A DNA stretch of 64,000 nt from Tubulanus polymorphus (lineage: Eukaryota; Animalia; Nemertea). Below, one piece after another: positions 23,201-26,200 of the stretch; the stretch's first letter is position 1; every line of letters starts with the position of its first letter. The translations under genes and the position numbers were made by a program. The stretch lies in NCBI RefSeq assembly GCF_964204645.1, contig NC_134029.1:3596001-3660000 (forward strand), written 5' to 3'. The notes under the pieces were generated by a model. It worked only from the letters and a program-made list of their open reading frames with translations, did no database searches and was not told the DNA's origin.

Positions 23201-26200
23201 ACACTTATGTGCTAATATTCTATGATATCTAATTAAATCTATCTATTCTTCATGCTCATCTATACAAACTTGTAAACTACCATCCTATTCACCCATAAAA
23301 TCTTAATTATGTCATTGATAATCAGATGTGCTGAAAACAATGACCTAACATAGAAATGCATGAGCAATTGTGTTCGCGCCTCAGGGTCAATTTGCCTGGT
23401 TGATAGTAATTAGTTCATTTCAAGTGTCACATGCCACTAACCAAGTGGTAATTGGGAGACAGTTTGTCAGTTGTTCACGCATAAAGTGTGGCTGATTAAG
23501 TCTGTGAACAGGAAAAACAATAGGTACAAACTATCTTCGAGTTTGGCACTCGAGTGCCACGGTATATATACTGTGTCAGCTGGATAGTTTGCCATAACAG
23601 TGAACACCACTCACTCTTGAGCTAAACTCACTTGTCTCTACATTGAACTATAATCATGATGATGATCGAAGATCGCCTTTTCGTATTCGAGACCGAACGC
23701 AAGTTGAAGAGAGCGTGCTACCAGATTCAGTTGATCGACGAACGATTGAAGCAACTGAAGGCGCGAGCGATGAGAGCCGGTGAACGACACGGGTTGAGAT
23801 CGGTGACGCACAGCATCCACGTGAAACTGGCGACGTTAGAAGGAATGAGAAACGCTTACTGCGAATACGTGCGCCTGAAGAGCAAAGTCATCAACGAGTT
23901 CTACGAAGACGTCAACTCGGAAAATGAAGATGAAGACGATGAAAATTTCTGGTGATGGTGATGATGATGATGACGGTGAAGATGAAAACGGTAGCGCGTG
24001 CAGTTTTGAACAGCTCGTATTTGGCTCTATTTGTGAGCCTAAAAATGTCCCAGAAAGAATCAGTCAAAACCCTCTGCTAAAACCCAAATCCAAACACATT
24101 CGTGTGTTGTCTCACATCATGTGAGTGTTGGAAATAACGTATGTTATTTCTGTGGTATTTTTAAGAATGAAACTAAAAAGTTGTCTCGGGCTTTTGTGCG
24201 CACATTCTGAGTGTGAGGAAAAAACTGTGAACATTGGAACATATTGAAAACTAGATGCTTAAACTCAAATTCTAAAATGCACACTAAAAAACAGAAACAC
24301 AGTTAAACCATAATAAACACCGAAAAATCTTCAAAATAACCTTTAATCTTTGAAAATCTACAAGAATTAAAAGACAATTAAGATCAATTAAATAAACCAT
24401 TGAATTTGCAAAATTAATACATAAATAGTAGAATAGCCCTTGAACTAATACGTGGAGAATAGATAAAACCAACTAATACAAATTTAAAAGTTTAGGCTAA
24501 ACAAAAATGATACCTTGTTTCTCCGCAGCGGCCGGGTCATTTTTGTAAAATATGATAAAATTTATAACCAGTTCATTTCTATAGCGGTCTGTTATGGTAA
24601 AATTGATCACGATTTAAAAAAAAGTAATGTATAGGGTAGATAGGCGGCCGGCCGGGTCAACATTTAAGCTCAGCAGAGCGGAGAAACAAGGTATCAATTT
24701 TTTTAGCCTTACAAGCATAATTTATTTAAAAGATAAAATCAAAGATTAAAAGACACGATGATAAAAACCGACTATATATGGGCAGACGATGATCTCTAGT
24801 GAGAGTTCGAATCTTCGTGTCATTTTAAATCTTTGATTATTAAATAATCATTGATTTGAGTTTTGTGGTTGTATATATTAATTCATTTTGGATTTTAACT
24901 TTTGATGGATATAATTTCAAATGGGTTCAGCCATAGATTTTGTTGCCAATTAAGAAGTTGTGTTATCTTTGTACAGGTAATGTTGCCAGTCCAAACCGGC
25001 AAATCAGTGGGAACAGTTGCCACTACTTCAAAAGCAATGGATTCCAAGAATGTCCAGTGCTACCTGGATCTACTGGCAATTGCAAAACAGATAGGTAAAT
25101 TCTATTCGAAATTGTTTGAGCATTTTTAATACAGTGCGCTTAATTCAAATCATTTGGGACCAACGAAATTCATCCGTTTTACAGGAAATCACGATTAAAA
25201 ATTATTTTCTTGTATATTAATGAACAAATTAATGGATTTGATTAAGATCCGGATTAAGCCATACTGGATTAAGCAGGTTTTAAGCGGGTTTGATTGTAGA
25301 GGGTTGGAAACTGGTTTCAGTGCAAATAATACTCTTCTTTGTTACAGCACAAAATCACGGAGTGAAGACATACGCGTCTATATTCCCGAACGCGATGTTG
25401 AGACAGATGTCGGAAGCGTTACCGATTGACGAGGAAGAAATGCTGAAAATAGATGGAGTTACAGTCGGAAAATACAGCAGATACAACATGTCTAGATTCC
25501 TAGAGATAACTCAAAATTACAAAGCTATCAGTGCTGGTAAGTTCAGCTAACGCAGTAAAACGTGCCTAGCTCGGATTTCCTGATTTACAGCAAGTTTTAC
25601 TGTATTCATTTTCCGTATGCTTTGACGTTAGTTTGTTGCTACTGGAGACGACCAGCCTGGTAAATCACGATTGATTGCTCTGGACCAGATTGGGCCCCTA
25701 GAGAGTGCTTTGTCATGGAATTAATTCGAAAGCCTTTTCCATTTTATAATTCCACGCCTTGTTATTAATACATTTTAGGTTTTGATGCCGATTTGATATC
25801 GGATGATTTTGATATGGTAGAACCGACGGCTGAAACTTCAACCGGATTGGGTCCTGAGATGATAGATTATGCCTCGCACTCAAGTTATTTCGGAGGGAAT
25901 AGTAGCTATGGTGGAGCAGGTGCAGGTGCTGGCGGTAACAAAAAACGTATGGATTTATTCAAGGTAAAACTGTCAGAAAAACCGTTTAGAAAAAGTTTTA
26001 AAGAAAGATATTGATTGTTAATTACAATTGATATCTCGATTGTTTTGATATTCGTGTAGGATTTCTAATGATAAGTTGAGGACTCAGATTGATGTGAAAA
26101 ATGGACATCGGCTAACAAATGTGCGAAAAATATTTAAGAAAAGCCTCAGAATATTTTGATAAAAACTCGGAATTTATGCATCAGTAGAAACGTTAAAAAA

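Follow-up and report, generated by a model that had tools for sequence, protein, structure and literature searches.

A lophotrochozoan family of small, mostly intronless genes in molluscs, annelids and a nemertean, whose products are not histones, carries in most sampled copies the 3' signal of replication-dependent histone genes; this signal at the level of the family is the surprise of the analysis, and the gene described here, nested in an intron of BLM in Tubulanus polymorphus, is its degenerate edge. The gene lies in a window of 64,000 nucleotides of contig NC_134029.1 (all positions below are those of the window), where an intronless ORF of 99 codons at 23656-23955 on the + strand sits on the same strand as its host, as the earlier note had described. 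It belongs to the family by sequence, its relatives bear the 3' signal and occur in tandem arrays, and it shares their promoter words, with what is probably a relic of the signal behind its own stop and with the loss of the residues that typify the tip of the protein. The nested gene is probably a solitary, diverged copy (an orphon) of this intronless non-histone family, likely with transcription from its own TATA box and polyadenylation of its own.

In a full HMMER scan of 1.84 billion 50%-representatives, the nested protein found 122 relatives at E<=1e-3, with identities of 25-43% and with matches over the whole two-helix core, and a family profile gave 390 matches among 2891 candidates, which bears out the earlier note in its proposal that the protein belongs to an unnamed family of small proteins with mollusc and annelid members. 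No Pfam family fits it. A profile of 114 relatives in which the query was not a row scores the nested protein at 59.5 bits (E 1.1e-10), and a profile of 288 relatives gives it 83 bits; a word-index search with the nested protein as sole query returned no match. The named members are those of bivalves, gastropods and annelids and of one nemertean (Mya, Dreissena, Magallana, Ostrea, Ruditapes, Patella, Littorina, Nucella, Lamellibrachia, Capitella and Tubulanus), and nearly all are labelled 'hypothetical' or 'uncharacterized'. The ESM Atlas places P0217 in one unnamed, mostly mollusc cluster and returned nothing for P0106. Selection among the relatives was estimated from their DNA copies, where the 157 of 3321 pairs with 0.1<dS<1.5 have a median dN/dS of 0.41, with 113 below 0.5 and none above 1, and on these alignments purifying selection is supported among the relatives. 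The family is like the spiralian-specific genes described by Wu et al. (2020; lophotrochin, trochin) in being clade-restricted and in encoding uncharacterised spiralian proteins, although by eye no oyster protein in the rows listed from the first of the two parts of that study's second supplementary file resembles the family (PMC7441323).

The protein had been read as two helices followed by a D/E tail, and this was confirmed by an AlphaFold2 model from a 110-sequence alignment, where helices at residues 2-43 and 48-95 (42 and 48 residues) form an antiparallel hairpin with a pLDDT of 92.8. Net charge is +8 over residues 1-80 and -10 in the acidic tail. A histone fold or H1 globular domain is absent by the Pfam listing, and the model consists of two long helices; Pfam gave nothing for the nested protein and only scattered weak coiled-coil matches for 110 members, and the 25 weak families listed, of 43, for the nested protein with 109 of its relatives include no histone family. 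A search of PDB sequences gave weak coiled-coil matches only. Structure prediction followed by Foldseek had been suggested as a check, and of this the confident hairpin stood, whereas no specific fold relative emerged beyond generic hairpins, with no match at E<=0.001 against PDB and BFVD. The N-terminal hairpin of ESCRT-III/CHMP proteins, prefoldin and SMC coiled coils share with the model an antiparallel two-helix hairpin (top VIA-align Z of 11.7-10.5), but these scores are tied with those of designed hairpins and lie below about 13, where the noise of the tool stands for helical models, at identities of 5-14% and with no sequence support. For ESCRT-III/CHMP there is neither a Pfam nor a PDB sequence match, and the nested protein ends after two helices; kinship with ESCRT-III, HR1 or prefoldin was dropped, since the top Z of 11.7 is within noise. 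A word that we take to resemble a SUMO-interaction motif occurs in 13 of the 122 representatives and is absent from the nested copy.

To our knowledge, the histone-type 3' hairpin is exclusive to histone mRNAs. In the DNA of the relatives, which was taken from 76 loci in JGI/ENA metagenome contigs (from the best 80 of 114 confirmed stretches), the strict 16-nt stem-loop pattern follows the stop in 49 copies, out of a total of 81, or of 76 when only those with 60 nt or more beyond the stop are counted, and it was found 0 times on the antisense strands in 163 kb. Covariance model R1 detects the signal in 62 of 76 relatives, a count that includes the 33 copies on which the model was trained, mostly 14-64 nt after the stop, while 14 of the 76 are without a histone-type signal; the Rfam model RF00032 at its gathering score matches 6 of the 76 loci (3 of the first 20). 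Of 34 non-redundant copies, 32 have a purine-rich word 11-16 nt behind the stem. Outside the R1 training set, 9 copies have A-U in place of G-C as the first stem pair, both sides having changed, and the training alignment itself holds 9 cells with a two-sided change. All 33 aligned relatives have a 4-nt loop closed by U-A, and 16 of the 33 share a mismatch at one position of the stem, so that many bivalve hairpins are slightly imperfect. By these features, most of the sampled family copies are likely processed by SLBP and U7 snRNP.

Like replication-dependent histone genes, the family genes are intronless, have a TATA box and a short 3' UTR, carry the 16-nt stem-loop with a purine-rich element behind it, and occur in tandem arrays with linkage to 5S rRNA and U1 genes. 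They differ in that the product is non-histone, having two long helices and no Pfam histone match, in that no histone gene was seen beside family copies in the loci, and in a promoter with clusters of TG[T/G]CA. As judged from sequence, the family resembles histone genes at the DNA level, yet is no histone family. The search for histone ORFs in the relatives' loci, most of which are 1-3 kb long, used 5 or 6 short histone motifs and found none.

The tandem arrangement is clearest on the 15-kb contig CBDHDT010000127.1 (L077-L082), where 7 copies recur in a 2.14-kb unit of a U1 snRNA gene, a family gene and a 5S rRNA gene, 2 of the 6 loci having been scanned with Rfam. 5S rRNA genes adjoin family copies in 4 further loci (L068, L069, L070 and L075), with up to three per locus. 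A histone cluster of Hydractinia has also been described as associated with U1 and 5S genes (PMC5011920). In Mya, 27 proteins share at least 90% identity, and the 15 listed are all on one sequence with near-consecutive locus tags; another family cluster has 135 members. The Mya gene models P0144-P0146, P0296 and P0297 chain from 2 to about 9 domain copies, and these are probably neighbouring array copies joined by annotation. The 15-kb contig sits in a bacterial MAG (GTDB); because it bears eukaryotic U1 and 5S genes, it is likely host DNA that was binned in error.

The promoter of the nested gene is of the same kind as those of its relatives. The earlier note had recorded a TATA box, found here as TATATATA at 23563-23570 (+), and before it a palindrome, present as TGGCACTCGAGTGCCA at 23544-23559 and composed of two inverted TGGCA words. 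As a conserved element the palindrome was rejected, since its spacing is not conserved in relatives (TGKCA-N6-TGMCA occurs in 2 of 82 loci) and it represents two copies of a family-wide word, TG[T/G]CA. Seven such words, the promoter signature of the family, lie at 23425-23594 (starts at 23425, 23432, 23465, 23544, 23555, 23574 and 23590), a number that no other 200-nt stretch of the window reaches. For the relatives, 76 anchored copies (4 dropped) gave 51 with a TATA box and enough flank, and 36 once near-duplicates were removed; the nested copy is excluded from this set, though its promoter was known when the two-letter position T/G was chosen. In the 150 nt before the TATA box of these 36 promoters, TG[T/G]CA occurs 125 times against 41+/-6 in 200 shuffles, TGGCA alone is enriched (30 vs 8.7), and TGTCA/TGACA is present in 34 of the 36. 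Because TCA[T/G] peaks 27-31 nt after the TATA box in relatives, we infer that transcription of the nested gene starts at about 23590-23596. TGTCA forms the core of TGACAG, a TALE homeodomain site that has been described as that of Prep/Meis (PMC6023610), and among spiralians the TALE homeobox genes have expanded, with expression in early cleavage (PMC12550047); the shared core suggests that TALE proteins may drive the family promoters.

The nested ORF has an in-frame stop TGA at 23644-23646 (+) 5' of its ATG, as had been noted, and exon-like codon use, where GC3 is 0.66 as compared with 0.49-0.56 in three stretches of BLM exon and with a total GC of 0.31-0.34 in the flanking intron. The protein retains C21, Q23, R37, A41, E62, G63, R65 and Y71, and thereby the C-x-Q and E-G-x-R-N-x-Y-x-x-Y residues of the family, together with the acidic tail. 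The tip is lost. Of the family tip residues Y38, F50, R51, Y52 and R55, the nested copy has 0 of 5, where all five are present in 237 of 288 relatives, two or fewer in 17 and none in just 1, so that the basic and aromatic tip motif R-Y..A....R-S-F-R-Y..R is a typical, though not absolute, feature of the family from which the nested copy departs. Its profile score is the 5th-lowest of 289 and its branch the 5th longest of 130, the tree does not place it (node support 0.17), and dN/dS is not computable for it, with synonymous sites near saturation (pS>=0.63). No second family copy was found in the 64 kb.

The main rival to the orphon reading is decay. By this account the gene is an orphon in the BLM intron that is losing its function, with hairpin and tip both eroding, as has been proposed for the decaying histone gene H1.3 of Hydractinia (PMC5011920). 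The missing tip, the low profile score, the long branch and the broken hairpin described below all agree with it, and so does a trace in the tail, where, beyond the stop and in another frame, D/E-coding triplets continue for about 35 nt (23956-23990; an ORF at 23924-24124 reads the acidic run), which perhaps reflects an old slip or duplication. Decay is nevertheless unlikely, as all 99 codons are open and the core has neither a stop nor a frameshift despite 60-70% divergence from the nearest relatives, the GC3 is that of a coding sequence within an intron of 33% GC, and the C-x-Q and E-G-x-R-N..Y..Y residues are retained. The densest cluster of promoter words in the window also lies at this gene, which is covered by contigs of the spliced run X3, and the gene has poly(A) signals, as opposed to Hydractinia H1.3, which is without them. 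A 22-nt repeat at 37-nt spacing accompanies this acidic run, and the contig of X1 has the same length across the stretch.

At the 3' end of the nested gene, a degenerate histone-type stem-loop, GGCTC-TATTTGT-GAGCC, lies at 24023-24039 (+), 67 nt past the stop, with 5 bp and a 7-nt loop and without the closing U-A pair or the 5' adenines. It departs from the canonical 16-nt stem-loop of the relatives, fails the strict pattern and has no Rfam match, and its fold is no better than that of shuffles (z -1.3). Its model score of 13.4 bits corresponds to E 1.8 window-wide, where it is the third-best match, and to E 0.015 when the search covers just the 535 nt behind the stop; it is because of its position after the stop, and not its window-wide score, that the hairpin is read as a relic. 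A relaxed hairpin pattern, written after the nested hairpin had been seen, has 3 further occurrences in 128 kb. The purine-rich element is better preserved, with CAGAAAGA, a word like the histone downstream element, at 24051-24058 (+), 11 nt behind the hairpin, in the same word and at the same spacing as in two relatives (L016 and L045). Two candidate poly(A) signals AATAAA, of which the earlier note had mentioned one, follow at 24312-24317 and 24391-24396 (both +), and a further AATAAA lies upstream of the gene at 23143.

The state of this hairpin bears on whether U7 snRNP still cuts the nested transcript, by way either of a strong downstream element or of a hairpin peculiar to the lineage, with short and polyadenylated mRNAs made side by side as for H2A.X. 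The exact match of the downstream word and its spacing to those of relatives speaks for it, and it has been shown that strong U7 pairing allows SLBP-free cleavage in mammalian extracts (PMC7026596) and that H2AFX gives both mRNA forms (PMC4604434). This is, however, decidedly unlikely, as the 5' adenines, the closing U-A pair and the loop are what SLBP needs for full affinity (PMC10388802), and the nested hairpin has neither of the first two and a loop of 7 nt, where 33 of 33 aligned relatives keep a U-A-closed loop of 4 nt. Moreover, an X3 contig at 24049-24283 lies wholly beyond the hairpin, downstream of the would-be cut, and ends 29 nt short of the first AATAAA. The nested hairpin is a probable relic that would bind SLBP poorly.

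The host intron is as the earlier note had placed it, at 22811-24976 (+) with GT..AG ends, between the RQC exon of BLM and the exon preceding HRDC; Pfam recognises DEAD, Helicase_C, RecQ_Zn_bind and RQC domains 5' of it and HRDC 3' of it at 25350-25535. X3 is taken to be RNA-derived because it contains GT..AG-spliced contigs, and in it the contig of the RQC exon has a loose end of 9 letters equal to the start of the exon at 24977, a match below the 31-letter threshold for a bridge, so that the junction across 22811-24976 is supported and unproven. It is the sole junction seen leaving the RQC exon, and it favours splicing of BLM across the nested gene. A second X3 contig covers the ORF at 23788-23914; X3 is one study whose library type was not recorded, with strandless contigs and depths of 5-6, and pre-mRNA of the BLM intron could be an alternative source of both contigs on the nested gene. 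Most of 22815-23787 has no listed piece in X3, an absence that carries no weight as evidence. At 23672-23691 there is a pyrimidine-rich, acceptor-like AG, in frame with BLM (phase 0) and with the nested ORF, from which no junction was seen.

The earlier note had also suggested that use of the nested poly(A) site could truncate BLM mRNA, for which no evidence was found; truncation there is possible and unsupported. An extension of this idea would make the locus mainly a regulator of BLM, in which the poly(A) sites or the acceptor at 23691 yield BLM mRNA that lacks HRDC and the C-terminal exons and is possibly fused to the hairpin. The shared strand and the in-frame AG would suit such a role, as would public gene models in which family copies are fused to upstream exons, namely the Capitella model P0298 (CAPTEDRAFT_195377), where SZT2 exons are joined to a family domain, and the Ostrea model P0084 (LOC125679921), where the domain is fused to a SWIM-finger protein with the SWIM finger upstream. 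These fused models may be annotation errors, however, and are probably joins over a nested or adjacent copy, P0298 suggesting a same-strand copy in or beside the SZT2 gene. With the observed junction leading to 24977, with a full promoter and its own ATG at the nested copy, and with other family copies lying antisense in introns of host genes whose exons they cannot be, a main role in BLM regulation is very improbable. Such antisense copies occur in an MTHFD1-like gene (L057, 2139-2765), with the hairpin intact, and in AGL (L072, 4872-5510), with no hairpin. Given these copies in introns of other genes, the family appears prone to landing in introns, and its presence in BLM calls for no particular link between the two.

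That the ORF arose by chance or is a piece of a transposon or virus, for which the SWIM finger upstream in the Ostrea model and the scatter of copies over many unrelated genomic places could be cited, is very unlikely in view of significant homology over the whole core, of purifying selection in relatives, of loci that are cellular multigene arrays with 5S and U1 genes, and of searches that saw no terminal repeats around the nested gene and no transposase in the 85 neighbouring ORFs scanned of 122 listed. The 33 pattern matches in IMG/VR included no relative, and BFVD gave no match at E<=0.001.

The orphon reading, which we prefer, has its closest parallels in orphon and replacement histone genes such as the long isoform of H2AFX and Hydractinia H1.3. 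H3.3 and the orphon H1 of Mytilus are further genes of this kind. Like them, the nested copy is solitary and outside an array, with its hairpin damaged or bypassed and poly(A) signals downstream; it differs in its non-histone cargo and in its same-strand nesting within another gene, and H2AFX differs in keeping a canonical hairpin. The family also has an intron-bearing, hairpin-less branch of its own, with an intron late in the second helix in L055 (839-1295), an ORF interrupted at the corresponding point in L056 and the stem-loop absent from L055, L056 and L026, and this branch is likely a replication-independent counterpart.

Under the orphon reading, family copies with the stem-loop and purine-rich element would be processed through SLBP and U7 snRNP, switched on through TALE-type TGTCA sites, and expressed in short, high bursts in S phase or in cleavage-stage embryos, with a small protein of basic hairpin and acidic tail as the product. 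We tentatively suggest that this protein might act in the nucleus as a partner on the chromatin side, produced in concert with histones, a role deduced purely from its charge pattern and gene anatomy. The nested copy, in which the family promoter is retained and the ORF is intact while the hairpin is damaged, would be polyadenylated after 24312 or 24391 and may be uncoupled from replication in the manner of a replacement histone variant, with the interaction of the tip presumably altered or lost. More speculatively, the BLM pre-mRNA, which is read from the same strand, may escape cleavage by U7 snRNP because the hairpin is lost, though the antisense-nested copy in AGL is also without a hairpin, which argues against same-strand nesting as the driver of its loss. 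The whole of this taken as one proposal appears doubtful, namely that the family is a non-histone client of SLBP and U7, a small chromatin protein in histone-like arrays, switched by TALE proteins in early cleavage or S phase and equipped with its own replacement variants, of which the BLM-nested one swapped its stem-loop for polyadenylation because an intact signal would cut BLM pre-mRNA.

A non-histone family that is conserved from molluscs to worms and bears the histone signal would amount to a lasting exception, and would directly test what makes a gene a U7 substrate. Messenger RNAs that end in the hairpin would be depleted in poly(A)-selected transcriptomes, which may explain why a family of tens to more than 100 copies per genome has stayed unnamed. 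The nested copy illustrates a way out of the array, by which a gene becomes a solitary, polyadenylated variant, and it offers a natural test of whether an intronic histone-type signal can cut a host pre-mRNA. Histone 3' ends and the 5S-U1 units of razor shells have reportedly been surveyed in older work that may bear on the novelty of these features. A search of the openly accessible literature, with a minority of its supplements, turned up no account of the family and none of a non-histone gene that carries a histone-type signal. By word look-up, the text available of surveys of annelid and mollusc histones (PMC12153100, PMC12210499) mentions no such non-histone genes, nor do the portions available of a 250-species review mention non-histone genes with this signal (PMC13525598).

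Other features of the window were noted beside the gene. The same BLM intron holds, 3' of the nested gene at 24492-24711, a short MITE-like element with 27-nt inverted ends that are 93% complementary, which is very high-copy (summed depth 126,000 in X1). About 700 nt past the BLM stop and on the BLM strand begins an endonuclease/exonuclease/phosphatase gene (27096-29148), spliced at 27609/27998 in X3, which we take to be nocturnin-like. A long tetranucleotide run of the (TTCG)n type lies at 48418-48810, and a short element at 51140-51490, with no family ORF nearby, has similar inverted ends and, at 51167, a word like the promoter palindrome.
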